DNA of 51,264 bases from Acidimicrobiia bacterium. GTDB lineage: Bacteria; Actinomycetota; Acidimicrobiia; Spongiisociales; ZC4RG35. Below are positions 21,077-31,107 of the stretch, piece after piece (position 1 is the first letter of the stretch; the number at the start of each line of letters is the position of its first letter). The stretch spans positions 1 to 51,264 of the forward strand of contig WHUC01000003.1 of NCBI GenBank assembly GCA_009377435.1, in the 5' to 3' direction. A program made the translations under genes and the position numbers. The notes under the pieces are model-generated. The model was not told the DNA's origin and made no database searches. It was given only the letters and a program-made list of their open reading frames with translations.

Positions 21077-21430
21077 CTACTCGCCTTCCTGGGCCTTCTC
21101 GTACTGGTTGAGCGCCACCACGAAGGCGACGAACACGATGAACGAGACCACCATGTAGGTGATGGGGATGATCCGGATCTCAAATGGGTTGAGACCCTCG
21201 ATCTCGACGGGACGCGGCCCACGGGGTGCGTAGAGCACGTACAGAAGCGAGCCGATGGTCATCCATCCGCCCACGGCGGCACCGGTGACCAGGAACCCCA
21301 GCTTCTTGCCGAGATTGGTGTAGTTGAGCAGATAGATGGTCCCGTAGAACACCAGGATGGCGGCGGCGAACAGGATGATCCCGGTGACGAACAGGTTCGC
21401 CGAGAGCAGGCTCCGCATCAGCTCGCGCAC
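21077..21430 (-). CDS. Small membrane protein (about 3 TM), last gene of the Rieske/cytochrome b operon
   Basis: 117-aa hydrophobic ORF; removing the MITE places its GTG directly after the cytochrome c stop. Confidence 0.8.
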   Translation of the reverse strand: MRELMRSLLSANLFVTGIILFAAAILVFYGTIYLLNYTNLGKKLGFLVTGAAVGGWMTIGSLLYVLYAPRGPRPVEIEGLNPFEIRIIPITYMVVSFIVFVAFVVALNQYEKAQEGE

Positions 21431-21628: not shown

Positions 21629-23671
21629 TTAGTCCCCCGTCCCGTTCAGATTGCCGCCACGGAGATACCGGGCGAGCATCTCGAGGTCGGCCTGGCTGAG
21701 GAGACCTCCGAAAGCCGGCATCCTGCCGGTGCCCATTCCATTGAGGCCATAGGGCTCGTCGACGACCGATCCGTTGGTGAGGAAGTCGACGAGAAGATCC
21801 GCCTCATCTCCCTGCGGGGCCTCTCCGAACTGGACGACCGGTCGGCCGTGCCACAACGCCGGACCGAGCGCACCGGATCCGGGCTCGCTCGAATACGGAA
21901 CACCAGCGGACCATCCGGCGGTATGACAACGTGCGCAGTACCCGTTGAACAGTCCAACGGCGCGGTCGGCGTCCTCGACGTTGCCGTCGAAGGCGGCGTC
22001 CGCGACGCCCTGGATATCAATATTCCACGGCTCCTCCTCGGCGGCCTGGCGGAGGAAGGTGAGACCTTCCTCCGCCGGGGGAAGAACCCGCTCGATGTTC
22101 TGAGCGGTGACTTCGAGGTTGGTGGCCGACGACTCGAGGGCACTGACAAATGTGTTTGCCGCCTCCGCATCCGGCTGACCTGAGCTTTCCGGGCCGGTCG
22201 GGTCTAACGTCACCGGGGGGATGTCGGCGGGTCGGGTGGCGGTATCGGCGTCGCTGAGGACCTGGCTGAGCTGCTGCTCCCCCGAATTGGAGAGCCCGTC
22301 GCCGTCGTTGTCCATGCCCCCGTCGAGGACGGTCTGGGCCTCGGTGGCGAGGTCGGCGCCACCCCCACCACCTTCGCCGGGCGCGGTGGTCTCGGTGGTT
22401 GCTCCGCCCGCGGCGGTGGTGGCGGGAGCGTCACCCGCCACGGTCGTCTCCGTGGACTCACCACCGGCTGCTGTGGTGGTCGGGCCTGCGGCGTCACCGC
22501 CGTCAGCGGGTGCGGGGAGGGCGGCGATGAACGCCTCTGCGCTCTCGGGATCGGTGACTTCGCCGGGGACATCGATGCCCTGCGCCTCCGCCGTGTCTAC
22601 CAGCTCATTGAGTTGTCTTATAGCGCCAGCGGACAGGCCGTCGTCCATCATGGCGTCATCGAGGGCAGCCGAGAACTCCGGGGCGAAGGGTCCGAGGATT
22701 GGGTCCGACTCGGCGGCGGACCTCAGCCGGCCGAGGGAGTCTTGTGCGGTCGTTGCGTCATCGGCACCCTCGACAGATTGTGCGGCCTCCGGATCGAACT
22801 GGACGGGCTCGACCACCCGGAAGAGGGCAATGGCCTCCTCCGAGAGCGCGGTCAGCTCGGTCTCGGCGGTATCGGAGACACCGTCACCATCGGTGTCGAT
22901 CTGGTCGACCGAAGCGTCGAGAATGGCCCGGCCCCGGCCCGCCAATTCACGAACCCCGGGAGCGAGCTCCCCGGACTGCTCGATGTCTTCGACAACCTGG
23001 GCCTGCTCGACAATGGCGCTCTGCACCGCATCGTCGGCCCCGGCGAGCTTTTGCTGGGCCGCGTCGATCTGGGGTTCGATCTCCCCAAGGACACTCGCCT
23101 GCTCGACCTGGATAGAGCGCAGATAGAGGAGGAGATCATCGACCCCGTCCTCATTGAGGGGGCCACCACCATCGAGACCCCACGGCGGCATCGGTGTGTT
23201 GGCCCGGCCATACGTGACCCAATAGCGAATCTCGTCCTCTTCGTAACGGAGGAACACGTCGTCGATCGACGGGGCCTCCCAGACGACGGTCACGTTTGAT
23301 CTCGGGTCGACGAACTCTGCGACACCGCCGCTTCCGCCCGGGCCGTGGCAACTGGCGCAATCCAACTCCACCCAGTGCTCCTCACCACGGGTCAGGGCCT
23401 GCTCGTTGAACTCCGCTGCGAAACCCTCCTGGCGGTCGTTCTCGCTGAGGAAATAGAGGGGGATGGCCACGGCGAGAAAGGCGGACAACAGGGCCGCCGC
23501 CTTCTGCCATCCCTCGAGACGCCGGGTCTCCAACAGCTCATCGGTCCCTCCGGGGGAGAGGTTGGAGGCGACCTCCTCGGGGCCGCGCCTCCGGATGGCG
23601 GACACGGCGAGGAACGCCAACCAGGCGACACCGGCGATCACCGCGAGGGTGAGGACGAGACTCGAGCTCAC
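21629..23671 (-). CDS. Large membrane-anchored dihaem cytochrome c of the Rieske/cytochrome b complex
   Basis: Two N-terminal TM helices; CASCH..PMPPW and CARCH..RMPAF; two DxDGDG motifs; start GTG 23671 or 23698. Confidence 0.88.
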   Translation of the reverse strand: MSSSLVLTLAVIAGVAWLAFLAVSAIRRRGPEEVASNLSPGGTDELLETRRLEGWQKAAALLSAFLAVAIPLYFLSENDRQEGFAAEFNEQALTRGEEHWVELDCASCHGPGGSGGVAEFVDPRSNVTVVWEAPSIDDVFLRYEEDEIRYWVTYGRANTPMPPWGLDGGGPLNEDGVDDLLLYLRSIQVEQASVLGEIEPQIDAAQQKLAGADDAVQSAIVEQAQVVEDIEQSGELAPGVRELAGRGRAILDASVDQIDTDGDGVSDTAETELTALSEEAIALFRVVEPVQFDPEAAQSVEGADDATTAQDSLGRLRSAAESDPILGPFAPEFSAALDDAMMDDGLSAGAIRQLNELVDTAEAQGIDVPGEVTDPESAEAFIAALPAPADGGDAAGPTTTAAGGESTETTVAGDAPATTAAGGATTETTAPGEGGGGGADLATEAQTVLDGGMDNDGDGLSNSGEQQLSQVLSDADTATRPADIPPVTLDPTGPESSGQPDAEAANTFVSALESSATNLEVTAQNIERVLPPAEEGLTFLRQAAEEEPWNIDIQGVADAAFDGNVEDADRAVGLFNGYCARCHTAGWSAGVPYSSEPGSGALGPALWHGRPVVQFGEAPQGDEADLLVDFLTNGSVVDEPYGLNGMGTGRMPAFGGLLSQADLEMLARYLRGGNLNGTGD

Positions 23672-23675
23672 GGGA

Positions 23676-24551
23676 TCAAAATCCGATGCACGAGGCACCC
23701 TGGGGGTATTGGACGATCGGCGAGGCGGCGCGTGGGGTCTGCACTATGGAACCCGTCCGCACGACCAGATCGCCATCGCGCTCCTCGACCACGAAACGGT
23801 CGAGGTTGCGTGGTGCCGGACCGGCGGAATACTCGCCGACCATGTCGTACTTGGAACCGTGACAGGGGCACTCGAAACCCTGCGAGCTCTCGCACCACGG
23901 CACCGTGCAGCCGAGATGGACACAACGCTGATAGAGGGCCATCAACCCACCGGCGACGACACCTACGTCGGAGAACTGCTCCCCGAGATCGTCCGGTGCC
24001 GGAACTATGTATCCCCGCGCCTCGGGGATGTAGACCGGGGTGACGGTCCGATCTGGGTTGAACACCTCGGTCCGAAGATCGTTGATCGCACCGGCCACCA
24101 CATCGGCGCCGAAACCGCCGGACAGCTTGGGCCAGAGCATCGCCAGCGACGCCAGGCTGAAGAGTCCCAGATAGGAGCCGAATGCGGTTCCTATGGCCCG
24201 ATTGAAGAACTGGCGTCGGGTGACACCGGCCTCCTCCGGGGACACCTCGACGACACGCTGGGTTTCGACCACCTCGACCGCATCACTGGCCACCGGGGCC
24301 GGTACGGGGGCCTCCTCCTCGGTCTCGGGGACCTCCTCCACCAAGGTCGGGGTTCCGGCCTGGATGGGTTCCAACCGAACCCCGGCGCGGGATCTGTCGG
24401 CTTGGCGGGTCTCGGCGCTCACCCCCGCGGTGGCGTCGGGCTCGGGCCGGGGCTCGGGTCGGGAGCGCCGGAAGGCGACGACGAACGCCCCGGCCGCAGC
24501 CGTGATGGCGACGACGGCCACGCCGATGAGGGCCCATGCGGTGGCGTCCAT
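23676..24551 (-). CDS. Rieske [2Fe-2S] subunit of menaquinol:cytochrome c reductase
   Basis: CVHLGC and CPCHGSKY boxes, GPAPRNL, internal twin-arginine TRRQFF before a TM helix. Confidence 0.95.
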   Translation of the reverse strand: MDATAWALIGVAVVAITAAAGAFVVAFRRSRPEPRPEPDATAGVSAETRQADRSRAGVRLEPIQAGTPTLVEEVPETEEEAPVPAPVASDAVEVVETQRVVEVSPEEAGVTRRQFFNRAIGTAFGSYLGLFSLASLAMLWPKLSGGFGADVVAGAINDLRTEVFNPDRTVTPVYIPEARGYIVPAPDDLGEQFSDVGVVAGGLMALYQRCVHLGCTVPWCESSQGFECPCHGSKYDMVGEYSAGPAPRNLDRFVVEERDGDLVVRTGSIVQTPRAASPIVQYPQGASCIGF

Positions 24552-25696
24552 TATTCCTCACCACCCTCGAAATGGACCCAGTCCTTCAGATCGTCAAAGA
24601 AGATCCCATCCGACCAGGGATAGGCGAAGTTGAAGCCCTCCCCCCGGAAGAGCACACCGATGATGGTCAGCGAAGCGGCGCCGGTGAGGAAGATGCTGAA
24701 CAGCAAGATGGCGAACTTCCGCTGCGAGGGTCTTGTCGATGGGTTGCGATCGATGTAGGGAATCAGCATGAACCCGACTAAACCGATGATGGTGGGGACG
24801 GTGACACCAGCGATCTGTGGGTCGAAATAGCTGAGTAGCTCCTGGAGCCCGAGGAAATACCAGGGGGCCTTCGACGGGTTGGGGGTCACATTGAAGTTGG
24901 CCGGTTCGAGAAGTGGGGCGGCGAGCGCCACCGACATCACCACGAGTAGCACAGTCATCGCCATCAGGGCCGAGAACTCGGCGATCATGAGATGGGGCCA
25001 GGTGTTGACCTTGTCGGTCGGCTCGGCCTTGACGTCTTGTATGGCGCGTGCCTTGACAACGGTGAGAAGACGTTGGGTCCGCACCCCCTCCGGGGTCCCG
25101 GCGGCGGGCGCAACCGGTCGGGGATCGACCATGGCGGCGACACGCCCATTGCCGGCGCCGCCTTCCTGGTGCCCGTCGGATGACGGGGGGGGCCCCTCTG
25201 ATGCGGGGTCGGCGACCGCCACCGCGGCAGGCTCCTCCTCGGCGGCAGGCTCCCCCTCGGCGGCAGGCTCCCCCTCGGCGGCAGGCTCCCCCTCGGCGGC
25301 AGGCTCCTCCTCGGCGGCAGGCTCCTCCTCGGCGGCAGGCTCCTCCTCGGCGGCAGGCTCCTCCTCGGCGGCAGGCTCCTCCTCGGCGGCAGGCTCCTCC
25401 TCGGCGGGAGGCTCGTCTGCGGTGGACTCGTCTGACTCCGGGACCGCTGGTTTGGATGGTTCGAAGGCGGGGGGCTTGGAAATGGTGACACCACCACCCT
25501 CACCGGTGTCCGCCGGTGTCGCCGTCTCAGGGGTGGCGTCGGCAGCCTCGGGCGCCGCGGTGTCGCCGACGGCGTCGTCACTCGCCGGTGGAGCCTCCCC
25601 CTTCATCTCGGCGAGCACCTGCTCCACGGGAAGATCGAGTGCCTTGGCCTTGGCCTCGGCCGACCGACGGAGAAGATCTTCGGGGATCTCAGCCAT
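24551..25696 (-). CDS. Cytochrome b subunit IV-like (C-terminal half of split cytochrome b) with a long acidic N-terminal extension
   Basis: WPHL, TPNPSKAPWYFLGLQELL and PYIDRNPS..P..RK motifs; three TM helices. Confidence 0.9.
   Translation of the reverse strand: MAEIPEDLLRRSAEAKAKALDLPVEQVLAEMKGEAPPASDDAVGDTAAPEAADATPETATPADTGEGGGVTISKPPAFEPSKPAVPESDESTADEPPAEEEPAAEEEPAAEEEPAAEEEPAAEEEPAAEEEPAAEGEPAAEGEPAAEGEPAAEEEPAAVAVADPASEGPPPSSDGHQEGGAGNGRVAAMVDPRPVAPAAGTPEGVRTQRLLTVVKARAIQDVKAEPTDKVNTWPHLMIAEFSALMAMTVLLVVMSVALAAPLLEPANFNVTPNPSKAPWYFLGLQELLSYFDPQIAGVTVPTIIGLVGFMLIPYIDRNPSTRPSQRKFAILLFSIFLTGAASLTIIGVLFRGEGFNFAYPWSDGIFFDDLKDWVHFEGGEE
25223..25402. repeat. In-frame 18-bp tandem repeat, 10 units encoding E(E/G)EPAA
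   Basis: Ten consecutive units of CGGCAGGCTCC(T/C)CCTCGG inside the subunit IV N-terminal linker. Confidence 0.95.
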
Positions 25697-25744: not shown

Positions 25745-26512
25745 TCACAATGGGCCCGAGATGCCGCCGTCCTTGCGGACCCTCCAGAAGTGCACCGACA
25801 GGAAGATGACGAGCACGAAGGGGAGGAACAGGACGTGGAGAACATACCACCGCAACAAGGTGTTGGCCGTCACCTCGGAACCGGACAGCAAGGCGAACTT
25901 GACCTGATCGCCGATCACAGGGACGAAGCCGGCCATGTTGGTCCCCACCGTGACGGCCCACAGGGCGAGCTGATCCCAAGGCAGCAGATAGCCGGTGAAA
26001 GAGAGCAGCAGGGTGAGGAGGAGCAGAACGACCCCAACCACCCAGTTGAACTCGCGTGGTGGTTTGTAGGCGCCGTGGTAGAAGACACGGCTCATATGAA
26101 GGAACACGGTGAGCACCATGAGATGGGCACCCCACCGGTGCATGTTCCTCAGCAGGGTCCCGAAGGCGACGTTGGTGGAAAGTGCCTGGATGTCGGCGTA
26201 GGCGGTGGCCTCCGACGGTGTGTAGTAGAACATCAGGAAGATGCCCGTGATGGTCAACAGTATGAACAGGAAGAAGGTGAGACCACCAAGGCAGAGGGTG
26301 TAGGACAGACGAACACCGTGCCTCTTCACCTTCACGGGATGGAGGTGATAGAGCACGTTGTTCATGACCACGTACGAACGGTTTCTCGGGCTATCGGCAT
26401 AGCCCTTCTTGAACGGCGATCCGGGCCGCAGCACAGAGGCGACGAACTGAGAGTTGGCGAGCTTGTCGCTCGCTTCCCGCACCCGTTCTCTCACAGGGAC
26501 CTTGTCAGCCAC
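25745..26512 (-). CDS. Cytochrome b6-like N-terminal cytochrome b subunit
   Basis: CLGG haem-ci motif, [32 protein letters not shown]-x14-H in helix D, ends GGISGPL; GGAGG RBS before GTG 26512. Confidence 0.95.
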
Positions 26513-26520
26513 ACATCCTC

Positions 26521-26970
26521 CTACCAGCGCATCCCGTATGAATATCCGTTCTTGAAGTCTCGTTGACCCGTGTCGAGATCCCAAGGTCGTCGGTCGAGCC
26601 CCATCTCCTCCGCCTGGGCGGCGAGGGAGCCTTCGAACTTACCCAACGTGATCACGTTCGTGGGGCACCGGTCGATGCACAGGGCGCACCGGGTGCACTC
26701 GTTCTCGTCGACCACGAAGAATCCGTAGTTCTGCGGATCGTCAACGGGATGATCGACCAGGATGGCCTCATCGATGGCGTCCAGGCTGAGATACATAATG
26801 CACTTCCACGGACAGATGTCGACACAGCCCTCACAGAGGATGCACTCGGCCTGGTCGATGTGGAGGAACTGCTTGGGTCGGAGCTTGTCCTTGAAGTAAT
26901 CCCCGTCCACCGGTGCGAGTTGATAGTCATCCCGGAAAGGCGGTGTCTCGTCGACGACTCCTCGTGGCAT
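26521..26970 (-). CDS. 2x[4Fe-4S] ferredoxin-like protein
   Basis: [12 protein letters not shown] and [12 protein letters not shown]; no signal peptide; ATG 26970 just after the upstream stop. Confidence 0.92.
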
Positions 26971-26971
26971 A

Positions 26972-27571
26972 TCAGCGATCTCCCGAGGTAAGGGGACGGC
27001 CGTAGGGAGAGCTCTTCGGCTCCGGCTCGGGTGGGGGAGTACCGCCACCGGCCAGATCCTGGATCTTGTAGGCGAACAACGCCCCCGCTCCCAGCATCCC
27101 CAGGTTGTAGGTCGCCGAGACCATGTCCTTGAGTGCGGCGAAGCTGAGGGCGACCTCGTTACCGAGCACAAGGAAGGGTGGGATGGTCAGGGCGGACCGT
27201 TGCGGTGACCAGTCGAGGTCGGTGGTGGCGAGGGTGAGCCACTCCGAGGGGACGATCCCGAAGATAATCACCAGTTCCACCCAGACGAGAAAGGCCGCGG
27301 TCGCCGCCAGCGCCCATGTCATCGGACGACCAAGGACCAGGGCTATGCCGGCACCCGCCAGCACCATCTGGGAGGCGCCGAAGACGAATAGATAGGCCAA
27401 ACCCTTCGACAACCAGCCCCGGGGGATGAGTCCGAGGCTATCGGGGTTGTCGATCTGGGCGGAATAGTGGACCCAGACCACCCCGACGGCGAGGAGGAAC
27501 AGCCCACCGGCGATCATGGACCAACCGATCCTGCGTCGCTGCGTCTCGTCTAGTTGTGCCAACCGATACAT
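26972..27571 (-). CDS. Membrane protein (about 4 TM), first gene of the Rieske/cytochrome b operon
   Basis: 199-aa hydrophobic ORF tightly coupled to the ferredoxin gene. Confidence 0.8.
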   Translation of the reverse strand: MYRLAQLDETQRRRIGWSMIAGGLFLLAVGVVWVHYSAQIDNPDSLGLIPRGWLSKGLAYLFVFGASQMVLAGAGIALVLGRPMTWALAATAAFLVWVELVIIFGIVPSEWLTLATTDLDWSPQRSALTIPPFLVLGNEVALSFAALKDMVSATYNLGMLGAGALFAYKIQDLAGGGTPPPEPEPKSSPYGRPLTSGDR

Positions 27572-27814
27572 GCGGTGGCGCTCCGGGATAGCCGATCGTT
27601 CCTACGGGTTGTTTGTACCACAGTCACCCTATCGCTGAGAATCGCGATTGTCGGGTCGGATCCGAAATCGGATGCGGCACAATACACCCCTATTGGGATG
27701 ACCGAACGACGGCTTTCTCTTCTAGTTGTGATGTGGTTCCCTTCCCGCTCCCGCATCTTCTATCCTCCGGCCCCTAGGAGGCCGGGAGGCGAAACGACGA
27801 GGAGAACGGAATTC

Positions 27815-29275
27815 GTGGCTGACGCTCCGACCACAACCCCGCAACACCCGGTACTCGAGGGAGCAGACGAGGCCTCGCGTCTCCATCTGGTGGCGTCGAT
27901 CCCCTTCCTGGGATTGGGTGCCCTCCTGGTGGTCACCTCGTTGTTCGCCATGGTCTTCCCCTCGGCCCTCCCCCTGCTCTATGGACGGATCCGCTCACTC
28001 GGGATGGCGGCGCTGATGTTGGGATGGTTGACCAATGTCCTCGTCGGGGGCACGTATTACGTCCTCCCCCGTCTCACCGGGGCACGTCTCGGCTCGGAGA
28101 GGTTGGCCCGTCTCGGATTTCTGGCGATCAACGCGGCCGCCGTGGGGGGGATGGTCCTGGTGGCCATCGGTCTGGGTGACGGTCGCGAGCCGTTGGCGTT
28201 CCCCTGGTACGCCGACATCGTTGTCCTGGGCGCCCTGCTGATCCCGGCAATCGTGATGATCATGACCCTGAGCGACCGAGAGGAGAAGACCTCGTTCCCC
28301 ACCGTGTGGTTCACGGGTGCCGGTCTGGCGATCCTGCCCCTCTCCTATGCCGTGGGGAACATCCCCGGTCTCGGTCCCATCCCGTCGACCCTGGGTGATC
28401 TCCATTTCGTCGGGACCTTCCCCGTGGGGGTAATGCTCACCATCGGTGTTGGGCTGACGTACTTCGCCCTCGTCAGGGAGTACGACATCCCCCTCGCCTC
28501 GCGGAGTCTGGCCCAGGTCGGTCTCTGGTCATTCGTGTTCGCCTCGGGTTGGATCGGCATCGCCCAGATCGCCCAGGGGCCGGTCCCGGGCTGGCTCGGT
28601 GGTGTCACCGCCCTGCTCGGTCTCGCCCTCCCCGTCGGAATGGTGGCGACCGCGGCGAATCTCGTGGTGACACTCGAAGACGAACTCGCCGGGATCCGTG
28701 ATCGCCCCGTGGCCTTGAGTGCGGTCTGGGGAATCGGTCTCGGTGTCGTGATCGGAGCCATCGCCGCCTTCGGGTCGCTGCGTTCGGCCGCGGGTCTGGT
28801 CGCCCTCACCCCGTTTTGGGAGGGCATCCTGATCGGACTGCTGCTCGGGGTGGGGAGCCTGCTCGTCGCCTCGTTCACCTATGAGGCGTACCCCCACGTC
28901 CTCGGTAGGGCCGTCGCCTCCCCATCTCTGGCCAGGACCCACGTGCGCCTCACCGTGTTTGGAATCGGTGGGGCATCCATCGCGTTGGCCATCGGCGGGA
29001 TCGCCTCCGGTTACGCCTGGTCGGGTGGGGCCTTCACCAGCGCCTACCAGCCATTCGGGGAGGGTTGGGCCCAGGCATCATCGGCGGGGCGGTTGTTCGC
29101 AGGCATCGCCTTGCTGTTGGCCCTGGTAGGTCTGGTAGGTATCGGTGCCCTCATGGTCAACCAGTTCCAGACGGTGACCCAGGGACATGCCGTCGCCCAG
29201 GAGATCCTCGTGACCAAGGTGGCCCCGGAGGATGAGGACCTCCCCGAGGACGTAAGCGAGGACAACGATGAGTGA
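27815..29275 (+). CDS. cbb3-type oxidase subunit I (CcoN)-like protein without haem/Cu ligand histidines
   Basis: Collinear with CcoN landmarks (YGRIR, YYVLPRLTG..L.SERLA, GRE....PW, S.SLA.V..W, VP.W, GR...S..LA..H) over about 12 TM helices; GAGGAG RBS before GTG 27815. Confidence 0.85.
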   Translation: MADAPTTTPQHPVLEGADEASRLHLVASIPFLGLGALLVVTSLFAMVFPSALPLLYGRIRSLGMAALMLGWLTNVLVGGTYYVLPRLTGARLGSERLARLGFLAINAAAVGGMVLVAIGLGDGREPLAFPWYADIVVLGALLIPAIVMIMTLSDREEKTSFPTVWFTGAGLAILPLSYAVGNIPGLGPIPSTLGDLHFVGTFPVGVMLTIGVGLTYFALVREYDIPLASRSLAQVGLWSFVFASGWIGIAQIAQGPVPGWLGGVTALLGLALPVGMVATAANLVVTLEDELAGIRDRPVALSAVWGIGLGVVIGAIAAFGSLRSAAGLVALTPFWEGILIGLLLGVGSLLVASFTYEAYPHVLGRAVASPSLARTHVRLTVFGIGGASIALAIGGIASGYAWSGGAFTSAYQPFGEGWAQASSAGRLFAGIALLLALVGLVGIGALMVNQFQTVTQGHAVAQEILVTKVAPEDEDLPEDVSEDNDE

Positions 29276-29580
29276 TCTCGCAGCCGCCGCCGAAGCGGTC
29301 GGGGCCCCCGAGGAGATGGTCCAGCGATCGGCCGAGGCCCGCGCCCAGGCCGACGGGACCAGTGTCGAGGAGGTGCTGGCGGCCTGGGCGGGGGGTGGGG
29401 GCGGCTCGGCCGCACCGGCTGAGTCCGAGGCCGACGAGGCCGCCCCCGAAACCCCGCCCGAGGAGACCGCGGAGACACCGGCCGAGGGAGCACCCGAGGA
29501 AGAACCCGCCGAACAACCCGACACCACACCCAGCGCCGCCCCGGCCCCCGCCGCGGCGGCAGAACCCGCGGCGGCGGCAC
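29266..29580 (+). repeat. Direct repeat, copy 1 (copy 2 at about 30077-30380)
   Basis: First ~125 bp differ at about 6 positions; the linker-coding part aligns with indels. Confidence 0.9.
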
Positions 29581-30086
29581 CCTCACAGGTGGAAGAAGCG
29601 GCGGTGACGGCGATTCCCATCCTCGAGAGCGACAAGGCCGATCAACCCCTCCTGGTCGTCCTCGGTGCGGTGGCCGTCTTCGCCCTCACCGCATTGCTTG
29701 GATTCGTGTTCCCCTCCCTTCCCGCCGACTCCGACCAGGTGGTCACCTCGAACATCGCCTTCTCCGAGAGCGCCATCGAGGGTCGCACCCTCTATCAGCA
29801 GCTCGACTGCGCCTCGTGTCACACCCAGATGGTGCGACCGGTCGTCGCCGACGTCGCACTAGGTCCGGTCACACTCGAGGACACCAATCAGGTCCTCGGT
29901 GTCCGCAGGATCGGTCCCGATCTGAGTTACGTCGGGTCCCGACTGGACCCGGCCGCCATCAGGGCGATCATCACGGGTGGGGGGAACCATCCCGCGGTCT
30001 CCCTCGCCGAGGACGATCTGGACGCCCTCACCAGCTATCTCACCGAATCCCGGTCCGAGAACGTGGAGACTGACGCCGATGAGTGA
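29268..30086 (+). CDS. CcoO-like monohaem cytochrome c with an N-terminal tag and acidic linker
   Basis: EGRTLYQQLDCASCHTQMVRP and GVRRIGPDLSYVG match CcoO motifs; one TM helix. Confidence 0.88.
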   Translation: MSDLAAAAEAVGAPEEMVQRSAEARAQADGTSVEEVLAAWAGGGGGSAAPAESEADEAAPETPPEETAETPAEGAPEEEPAEQPDTTPSAAPAPAAAAEPAAAAPSQVEEAAVTAIPILESDKADQPLLVVLGAVAVFALTALLGFVFPSLPADSDQVVTSNIAFSESAIEGRTLYQQLDCASCHTQMVRPVVADVALGPVTLEDTNQVLGVRRIGPDLSYVGSRLDPAAIRAIITGGGNHPAVSLAEDDLDALTSYLTESRSENVETDADE

Positions 30087-31107
30087 TCTCTCAGCAGCCG
30101 CCGAAGCGGTCGGGGCCCCCGAGGCGATGGTCCAGCGATCGGCCGAGGCCCGCGCCCAGGCCGACGGGACCAGTGTCGAAGAGGTGTTGGCGGCCTGGGC
30201 CGGGGGCGGTACCGCCGCAGGGGCGGCGCCCCCGACCGAAGAGGCTCCCGAAGCCCCCACCGAGGAGACCGCGGAGACACCCGCCGAGGAAGCACCCGAG
30301 GAAGCACCCGCCGAACAACCCGACGCCGCACCGAGCGAGGCCCCAGCGCCCGCCGCGGCAGAACCGGCCGCCGCCGCCATCGCCCCCAGGGCCGCCCCAC
30401 CCGCACCGGAGACCGTCACGCCCGACGAAGCCGCCAACTACCCGGTGGTGATCACCGTTCCCACCGCGGGCATCAAGGAGCGCACCAACTACGCGGTGCC
30501 GACGTGGCTCGTCGCCCTGTTCATGCTGGTGCCCCTGTTCGGGCTGCTCGGCCTCGCCGGTGGCGCCGAGACGGTCTGCAACGAGGCGACGGAGCTCCAG
30601 ATGGACCGCCAGACGGGGAACCTCGTCAATTGTGACGGAACCGCCTTCGAGGGACGGGAGGCCGCCGGTGGCGGGGCGGACTTCATCGCCATCGGCGAGG
30701 GGATCTATCCCGAGTGCGCCAGTTGTCATGGCCCCAACGGTGAGGGAGGTGTCGGTCCCGCATTGGCACCGGTGACCGGGACCTTTGGCTCGTGCACCGA
30801 CCACATCGCCTGGGTCGCCGCGGGCACATCGGGGTTCCAGGCCCAGGGTCTGGGGACCTATGGGGACTCCGGTAAACCGGTGGGGGGCGGAGGCAACATG
30901 CCCGGGTTCGAGGGGACACTCGACGCCGAGCAGATGGCCTCGGTGGTGGCGTTCGAACGCGTCCGCTTCGGGGGGGAGAACCCCGAGGCGGCGTTGGTCG
31001 CCTGTGGTCTCGCCGAGGAGGAGACCACCGAAGGTGGGGAGGAGGGCGCCGAGGAAGCCGAGGGTGGCGACGGCGCCACCGTGACCACGGCCGGTTCCGG
31101 GGGCTGA
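30079..31107 (+). CDS. Membrane-anchored monohaem cytochrome c with the same N-terminal tag
   Basis: CASCHGPNGEGGVGPAL..NMPGF; one TM helix; ATG 30079 overlaps the upstream stop. Confidence 0.9.
   Translation: MSDLSAAAEAVGAPEAMVQRSAEARAQADGTSVEEVLAAWAGGGTAAGAAPPTEEAPEAPTEETAETPAEEAPEEAPAEQPDAAPSEAPAPAAAEPAAAAIAPRAAPPAPETVTPDEAANYPVVITVPTAGIKERTNYAVPTWLVALFMLVPLFGLLGLAGGAETVCNEATELQMDRQTGNLVNCDGTAFEGREAAGGGADFIAIGEGIYPECASCHGPNGEGGVGPALAPVTGTFGSCTDHIAWVAAGTSGFQAQGLGTYGDSGKPVGGGGNMPGFEGTLDAEQMASVVAFERVRFGGENPEAALVACGLAEEETTEGGEEGAEEAEGGDGATVTTAGSGG

Follow-up and report, generated by a model that had tools for sequence, protein, structure and literature searches.

Invariant histidines are regarded as the defining mark of the haem-copper oxidase (HCO) superfamily. 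In CcoN, the catalytic subunit of the cbb3 oxidase (P. stutzeri structure 3MK7), seven residues have roles that we take from established knowledge of the structure: H60 and H347 are the axial ligands of haem b, H345 is the ligand of haem b3, H207, H257, and H258 are the ligands of CuB, and Y251 is the cross-linked tyrosine. Departures from this pattern have been proposed; according to a preprint by Murali et al. (10.1101/2021.10.15.464467), gNOR and other proposed HCO families have altered active sites and lack the cross-linked tyrosine. Here we describe pCcoN, a CcoN homologue encoded at positions 27815 to 29275 (forward strand) of a 51,264-nucleotide stretch of DNA from an Acidimicrobiia bacterium (contig WHUC01000003.1, positions 1 to 51,264; assembly GCA_009377435.1), referred to below as the window. 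Unlike gNOR and the other proposed HCO families, pCcoN has all six histidines replaced. It is a member of the HCO superfamily by sequence and fold that has none of the catalytic features by which a cbb3 oxidase is recognized and therefore should not be filed as one.

The pCcoN gene starts with GTG at 27815, about 10 nucleotides (nt) downstream of AGGAG, and ends with TGA at 29275, so that the product has 486 amino acids (aa) with 12 transmembrane helices. A TTG start at 27554, given by the mechanically called open reading frame (ORF), would add 87 residues that are absent from every homologue. pCcoN matched PF00115 (COX1) with an expectation value (E) of 1.1e-22 and 80.9 bits (gathering cut-off, 34.8) over positions 4 to 422 of the 436 in the profile, and a sequence search of the PDB returned five matches in total, each of them a cbb3 CcoN chain. 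The score against TIGR00780, the CcoN equivalog model, was 76.6 bits, compared with a cut-off of 583.15. In the HMMER alignment to 3mk7_A, from which the P. stutzeri residue numbers were read and whose chain numbering reproduces the known ligand numbers, the haem b ligands H60 and H347 are replaced by G63 and I340, the haem b3 ligand H345 by I338, and the CuB ligands H207, H257, and H258 by T201, A250, and Q251. The cross-linked tyrosine Y251 is replaced by S244. Coverage of the PF00115 profile was near complete, and no haem or copper ligand was recovered in the alignment to 3mk7_A. The original prediction, made from the window before any of these searches, had stated that the six metal-ligand histidines and the tyrosine were all lost from a full-length ORF coupled to the next gene. 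Both statements are borne out, the second by a stop codon that overlaps the next ATG by 8 nt (ATGAGTGA), and the coordinates then assigned are correct when residues are counted from the GTG at 27815 (residue 63 at 28001, 197 at 28403, 250 at 28562, and 338 at 28826).

The CcoN fold had also been predicted to be intact. An AlphaFold2 model of pCcoN, for which a 49-sequence family alignment served as input, had twelve long helices, with a mean predicted local distance difference test score (pLDDT) of 91.2 and a predicted template-modelling (TM) score (pTM) of 0.91. When this model was compared with the PDB by Foldseek, the seven top matches were cbb3 CcoN chains (E, 6e-17 to 2e-15; query-normalised TM score, 0.81 to 0.83), followed in the ranking by cNOR NorB (E, 3e-9) and A- and B-type subunits I. 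As modelled, the fold of pCcoN is intact while the ligands are gone.

The same replacements run through a family of proteins. A word-indexed search of 5.8 billion proteins gave 76 clusters at E < 1e-40 and 30 to 75% identity, the window protein included, and one garbled row was dropped to leave a family set of 75. Not one of these clusters has His at the H60, H207, H257, H258, or H345 site, or Tyr at the Y251 site, where Ala, Ser, Gly, and other residues stand instead; His at the H347 site was found in 2. When a shift of up to 4 residues in either direction was allowed, His near any ligand site was present in at most 4 clusters, and within the same 4-residue margin of the ligand sites no conserved His, Met, Cys, or Lys was found across the 75. 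Only at residue 24, where helix 1 begins on the cytoplasmic side, is His present in at least 50% of clusters, and no column reaches this level with Met or Cys. The original prediction had carried a caveat that the His at 28403 (residue 197) might act as a ligand from near the CuB position. That residue is His in 3/75 family members, so it is not a conserved substitute, and the candidate was rejected. The H60 site is Ala in 60 clusters. The H347 site is Tyr in 60, and this Tyr is not a general substitute ligand because the window protein has Ile there. Across the 49-sequence alignment of the family, 21 columns are invariant, and the window protein carries the motifs of its clade (YYxLPRxTG, WxGxxQ, and LTxFWEG).

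The wider relationships of the family were examined with a family-profile scan of 1.84 billion representative sequences, which gave 1960 matches at E ≤ 1e-3 and 311 at ≤ 1e-30. The sample taken for alignment and tree building, 168 near-full-length rows made up of the top 150 matches and the family alignment, is biased by the profile. Within it, 129 rows have no more than a single His across the eight ligand columns; the rest are canonical (29) or intermediate (10). The loss of ligands is not a matter of chance, because the 29 canonical relatives in this wider sample keep their histidines. In a FastTree phylogeny calculated with the ligand columns removed and rooted at the midpoint, the window protein falls within a set of 103 rows, all ligand-less, with a Shimodaira-Hasegawa-like (SH-like) support of 98. 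Further ligand-less rows are nested among canonical CcoN sequences, and in this profile-biased sample the well-supported branches require at least five changes of state; because of these forced changes, ligand loss in CcoN relatives probably happened more than once. Ten distant ligand-less relatives were scanned for additional domains: seven are fusions of COX1 and FixO, one is a fusion of COX1 and cupredoxin, and two are COX1 alone. In the cupredoxin fusion, database protein P0128, a ligand-less CcoN relative is joined to a PF13473 domain (E, 3e-10) that takes the place of the FixO domain. Natural fusions of this kind indicate, as Rosetta-stone evidence, that the task of the dead subunit is to carry a redox domain.

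Selection on pCcoN and its neighbours was estimated from related loci. A scan of one genome per species gave 142 relatives, of which the best 80 loci were kept, nearly all of them from metagenome-assembled genomes (MAGs) of Acidimicrobiia, and ratios of nonsynonymous to synonymous substitution (dN/dS) were calculated from codon alignments by the Nei-Gojobori method. Omission of pairs with dS above 0.6, which were considered saturated, left 58 pairs with dS of 0.05 to 0.6, and 14 of these have no locus in common. For pCcoN, the median dN/dS of the 14 independent pairs was 0.085 (range, 0.037 to 0.28), near the values for the CcoO-like gene downstream (0.128; 13 pairs) and a gene for a 199-aa membrane protein upstream (0.096; 12 pairs). 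Medians for other neighbours were 0.041 for cytochrome b6 (11 pairs), 0.024 for subunit IV (9 pairs), and 0.186 for the second cytochrome c (11 pairs). A few control pairs of cytochrome b6, ferredoxin, and Rieske genes exceeded 1; these were read as artefacts of cutting the best tblastn segments at gene overlaps, and medians only were used. All 14 independent pCcoN pairs thus lie far below 1, none of them near it, and the pCcoN reading frame is intact in 80/80 loci. Purifying selection on the pCcoN family is clear.

The genome that contains the window (2.25 Mb in 227 contigs, 88% complete) was searched for a canonical ccoN, as the original prediction had suggested. None lay above the TIGR00780 cut-off in this 88%-complete assembly (best score, 73.8 bits), and FixH and FixS (PF05751 and PF03597) likewise had no match, an absence that at this completeness is not proven. 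Other oxidases are present: two A-type COX1, one of them in a caa3 operon in which a CxxCH domain is part of subunit II, and a cytochrome bd. The FixO homologue in the window is the only one found in the genome, and the cytochrome b in the window is likewise the only one found (a single match when the genome was searched). As established for the phylum, this actinobacterium presumably has no periplasm for a soluble cytochrome c. Four findings support the central claim of the original prediction, that pCcoN is a maintained pseudoenzyme unable to reduce O2 or NO: the family-wide loss of ligands, an unbroken fold, purifying selection, and other oxidases in the genome.

Two genes for c-type cytochromes follow pCcoN on the forward strand and make up a three-gene module with it. 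The first (29268 to 30086) encodes a CcoO-like, membrane-anchored monohaem cytochrome c of 272 aa, with an N-terminal cytoplasmic domain shared with other proteins of the locus, a Pro/Ala/Glu-rich linker, one transmembrane helix, and one CxxCH. It matched the FixO family PF02433 (E, 2.6e-8) and, by phmmer, the CcoO chain 3mk7_B (E, 1.6e-6) over the transmembrane helix, the CxxCH, and the RxGPDL motif. The CcoO motifs CxxCH, QMxRP, and RxGPDL are retained in the window protein, and CxxCH is retained in 76/76 orthologue fragments. The second gene (30079 to 31107) encodes a membrane-anchored, class I monohaem cytochrome c of 342 aa (PF00034; E, 8.5e-7), with an NMP distal motif and the same N-terminal domain. 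It scored 13.7 bits against TIGR00782 (CcoP; cut-off, 180) and is not a dihaem CcoP; a single CxxCH was found in 71/71 orthologue fragments. In its distal-ligand motif, the CcoO-like protein has a His (conservation, at least 95%) at the place taken by Met in the second cytochrome. The 8-nt junction between pCcoN and the CcoO-like gene recurs between the second and third genes of the module, where the same ATGAGTGA is found.

On the other side of pCcoN, across a divergent intergenic region of 243 bp (27572 to 27814) located from the ORF map and the sequence, lies a seven-gene operon on the reverse strand for a Rieske/cytochrome b6/dihaem cytochrome c complex, hereafter the b6c complex. Its first gene (26972 to 27571) encodes the 199-aa membrane protein, which had no Pfam or NCBIfam match at threshold and whose position is conserved in related loci. 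The second (26521 to 26970) encodes a 2x[4Fe-4S] ferredoxin with matches to PF00037 and PF13237 in two stretches; its likely ATG lies directly after the stop codon of the preceding gene, the mechanical ORF extends to 27171, and the match of relatives to that ORF begins at about residue 60 to 77. The third gene (25745 to 26584) encodes cytochrome b6, the N-terminal part of a split cytochrome b (PF00033; E, 1.2e-47), and the fourth (24551 to 25696) encodes a PetD-like subunit IV (PF00032), headed by the shared N-terminal domain and with APWY as the Qo motif in its translation. A long acidic linker of PAAEEE and PAAEGE repeats runs at about residues 95 to 160, between the N-terminal domain and the membrane part, and the Pro/Ala/Glu linkers that follow the N-terminal domain in both module cytochromes resemble it. 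The fifth gene (23676 to 24551) encodes the Rieske iron-sulfur protein (PF00355), and the sixth (21629 to 23698) encodes a dihaem cytochrome c with CxxCH at residues 114 and 588 (PF13442 in two stretches). The haem domains of this cytochrome are parted by about 470 acidic low-complexity residues, with two Asp-rich TSP3-like motifs (weak match to PF18884), and the distance from one matched haem domain to the other, about 310 residues in the window, is about 200 in most related loci. The seventh gene (21077 to 21430), recognized as an ORF of conserved position, encodes a small membrane protein of 117 aa that, like the 199-aa protein, belongs to no known family. The module was considered as the supplier of a cytochrome c1 missing from the b6c complex; this possibility was dropped on account of the dihaem cytochrome c at the end of the b6c operon.

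The linkage between module and operon is strict. Where enough flanking sequence is available, the CcoO-like and cytochrome c genes lie downstream of pCcoN in 69/69 loci, the first five b6c genes are divergent upstream of it in 61/61, and all seven, including those for the dihaem cytochrome c and the small membrane protein, are present in 55/55. Among 301 sampled Acidimicrobiia genomes, 119 have a pCcoN match at E ≤ 1e-20; the window's family contributes 35 other genomes to the sample, and 34 of them are among those 119 (one genome, G254, is unpublished). The same cluster was found in five genomes of four more distant families of the class, in three of which pCcoN and CcoO are fused in a single frame. 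No donor-oxidising enzyme is conserved in the cluster across related loci. In most of these loci, the module is followed by a SAM hydroxide adenosyltransferase-family gene (PF01887/PF20257; 31208 to 32056 in the window, reverse strand), which in the window adjoins a gene for a 645-aa subtilase with C-terminal repeats (PF00082; 32143 to 34080, forward strand).

Three proteins of the locus, namely subunit IV, the CcoO-like protein, and the cytochrome c encoded by the third module gene, begin with the same kind of cytoplasmic domain, about 40 aa long and with RSAxA as its invariant core, and it is present in every locus that holds these genes. The copies in the window lie at 29268 to 29396 and 30079 to 30207 (forward strand) and at 25595 to 25693 (reverse strand), the profile match in subunit IV being at 25690. 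The only other copy in the genome (G000:C17:1165-1296) heads a 421-aa polytopic membrane protein, whose gene is convergent with the caa3 operon; the same neighbourhood was found in 7 of 8 other genera examined. No Pfam family was found for the shared domain, the 199-aa membrane protein, or the 421-aa membrane protein beside caa3. By its distribution in the sequences, this domain appears to be a common tag that links complex III, the pCcoN module, and the caa3 region. A complex prediction for three copies of the domain scored 0.01 against a mark of 0.42 and is uninformative either way. Within one genome, the two module cytochromes have almost the same copy (93% identity in the window), a pattern suggestive of gene conversion, or else of a recent duplication in which the ATGAGTGA junction was copied too. 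Tandem arrays of the domain, with as many as four copies, occur in some cytochromes. In one locus (L089, 11357 to 12179, forward strand), four tandem copies of the domain occur in the cytochrome c downstream of a pCcoN-CcoO fusion.

These observations make it fairly probable, in our judgement, that pCcoN is a membrane scaffold, itself without redox activity, that keeps c-type cytochromes beside the b6c complex. It would be a descendant of the cbb3 catalytic subunit that has kept the 12-helix fold without haem b, haem b3, or CuB, and because none of these would be bound, it would reduce neither O2 nor NO. Embedded in the membrane, it would anchor two partners, the CcoO-like protein and the second monohaem cytochrome c, at the outer face. 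The three-gene module would most likely serve the neighbouring Rieske/cytochrome b6/dihaem-c complex, which is the cell's sole complex III, by passing electrons between it and the caa3-type oxidase as an anchored relay, or by offering the two a docking platform. The cell has oxidases that take their electrons from cytochrome c, and the module provides two membrane-anchored c-haems on a large inert body. pCcoN is read as the scaffold of such a relay or platform because the module adjoins complex III in every genome that has it and because the fusions carry redox domains. The original prediction had offered a role as scaffold or partner subunit; such a role accords with the strict gene linkage, with the fusions of CcoN to CcoO, and with haem c partners that are intact, and it is the part of that prediction that we infer rather than observe. 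The channel that the prediction gave as another option is neither favoured nor contradicted by these data. A broader proposal, which we regard as possible but would not rely on, is that the cofactor-less CcoN is the core of an unrecognized respiratory adaptor, recruited more than once to attach c-type cytochromes or a cupredoxin to quinol:cytochrome c oxidoreductases, and that the shared N-terminal domain joins a hard-wired b6c-adaptor-caa3 assembly in Acidimicrobiia.

Several points weigh against the scaffold. That the three proteins form one complex, that this complex contacts the b6c complex, and that electrons flow in the direction assumed are all matters of inference. The dN/dS pairs all come from orthologues and none includes the window's own gene (nearest relative with DNA, 46% identical), and identity to the window across related loci is about 40% for pCcoN versus about 80% for cytochrome b6, so pCcoN evolves faster. 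The b6c operon encodes its own dihaem cytochrome c. In 5/5 complete or near-complete genomes of pCcoN-less Acidimicrobiia, from four other families, the seven-gene operon stands alone, with a subunit IV that carries a weak version of the shared domain (E, 1e-5 to 0.1). Thus, the b6c complex is self-sufficient, with the pCcoN module an accessory in some lineages, and a relay by the module is not required for complex III function. The position of the distal motif suggests that the CcoO-like haem may be bis-histidine; if it is, and if its potential is low, it would be less suited to a path toward a high-potential oxidase. Finally, APWY-type complexes may run in reverse, according to a proposal of Kao and Hunte (PMC4122944), which would alter the assumed direction of flow; by their account no APWY-type complex has been characterized, and they list a split cytochrome b for Ilumatobacter.

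It is also conceivable, and in our view unlikely, that pCcoN has a haem-independent activity of its own, such as conduction of protons or other ions or binding of menaquinol that reduces an attached haem c, with the cytochromes as its redox partners. Purifying selection on pCcoN is as strong as on other accessory subunits, and the family has its own conserved polar residues, R86, R155, E157, R230, Q251 (57/75), and an E/D in the FWEG motif, together with the Tyr at the H347 site in 60/75. However, the AlphaFold2 helix map places most invariant residues in loops at both membrane faces and not in mid-membrane, and neither this Tyr nor the E/D is universal, the window protein having Ile340. The positions of S240 and H243 of CcoN, which we take to be canonical proton-path residues, are Ala, invariant in the family alignment, and Gly in the window protein, and no quinone-site motif was identified in pCcoN.

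A distinctly improbable alternative is that the module is a point of electron entry, with its anchored cytochromes collecting electrons from an external or high-potential donor and feeding them into an APWY-type b6c complex that runs in reverse. Reverse operation of APWY complexes is the proposal of Kao and Hunte (PMC4122944) cited above, and a bis-histidine haem in the CcoO-like protein would accord with it. However, the genome has a single cytochrome b alongside two A-type oxidases and cytochrome bd, a pattern in keeping with ordinary aerobic respiration in the forward direction, and the cluster has no conserved enzyme that would oxidise such a donor.

We give very little credence to the possibility that pCcoN binds haem or metal through unusual ligands and is still an O2 or NO reductase. 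The fold is preserved in full and the Tyr at the H347 site is frequent, but candidate ligands of the four kinds considered (His, Met, Cys, and Lys) are not conserved at or near any ligand site. The window protein has Ile at the H347 site, the partner site H60 is most often Ala, the cross-linked tyrosine is missing from all 75 clusters, and FixH and FixS were not found in the 88%-complete genome. That the gene has no function left and is in the course of being lost, as the missing catalytic residues and its standing as the least conserved gene of the cluster by identity to the window might suggest, is scarcely credible: a decaying pseudogene is ruled out by the dN/dS of every independent pair and the unbroken frames, and retention in 34/35 family genomes and the 21 invariant columns speak against it as well.

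pCcoN belongs to an undescribed clade of Acidimicrobiia that is defined here by its ligand-less group in the tree, its family motifs, and its divergent b6c operon. No description of a ligand-less CcoN was found in open-access papers or bioRxiv, although subscription journals and supplements may hold one. Among the 14 family clusters that have names, 13 are labelled cbb3-type oxidase subunit I. Acidimicrobiia are abundant in soil, freshwater, and the sea. Because pCcoN passes the Pfam COX1 model and carries cbb3 labels, metabolic reconstructions can credit these organisms with a high-affinity oxidase and microaerobic respiration that pCcoN cannot provide. A paper on acid-mine MAGs (PMC8357290) lists cbb3-type oxidases for actinobacterial MAGs, calls that may or may not rest on the pCcoN family. 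A large clade that is under selection and lacks the hallmark histidines represents a second life of the fold and a natural test of what the fold can do without cofactors. It also draws attention to a respiratory assembly that has yet to be studied, a b6-type complex III that includes a ferredoxin, together with a pCcoN module; this assembly could be isolated and its structure solved.

Comparison with described systems places the module closest to the cbb3 oxidase (P. stutzeri, 3MK7 and 5DJQ). Both have a subunit I with the 12-helix fold (TM score of 0.83 to 3mk7) and the same gene order, in which subunit I is followed by a transmembrane-anchored monohaem CcoO homologue, the partner expected of a CcoN, and a further c-type cytochrome. 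In contrast to the cbb3 oxidase, the third subunit of the module has one CxxCH where CcoP has two, pCcoN lacks the six histidines and Y251, the module cytochromes have an N-terminal domain with no Pfam match, and FixH and FixS were not found. cNOR NorB, in which the same six His are joined by Glu ligands for FeB, is a weaker fold match, and its homologous six His positions are all replaced in pCcoN.

The bc1-cbb3 supercomplexes (R. capsulatus 6XKW, P. aeruginosa 8SMR, and alphaproteobacterial 9G83), whose chains rank among the best fold matches of the pCcoN model, resemble the locus in having a CcoN-type module beside a Rieske/cytochrome b complex with anchored c-type cytochromes between them. 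Unlike pCcoN, which lacks cofactor ligands, their CcoN is a working oxygen reductase; complex III in the window is of the split b6 type with a ferredoxin, and its association with the module is deduced from gene linkage. The actinobacterial bcc-aa3 supercomplexes (C. glutamicum 7QHM and M. smegmatis 6HWH, both also fold matches) differ in their unsplit QcrB and in having no CcoN-like, CcoO-like, or ferredoxin subunits. They share with the locus a complex III that has a dihaem cytochrome c, which in the bcc-aa3 supercomplex is connected directly to an A-type oxidase, soluble cytochrome c being absent.

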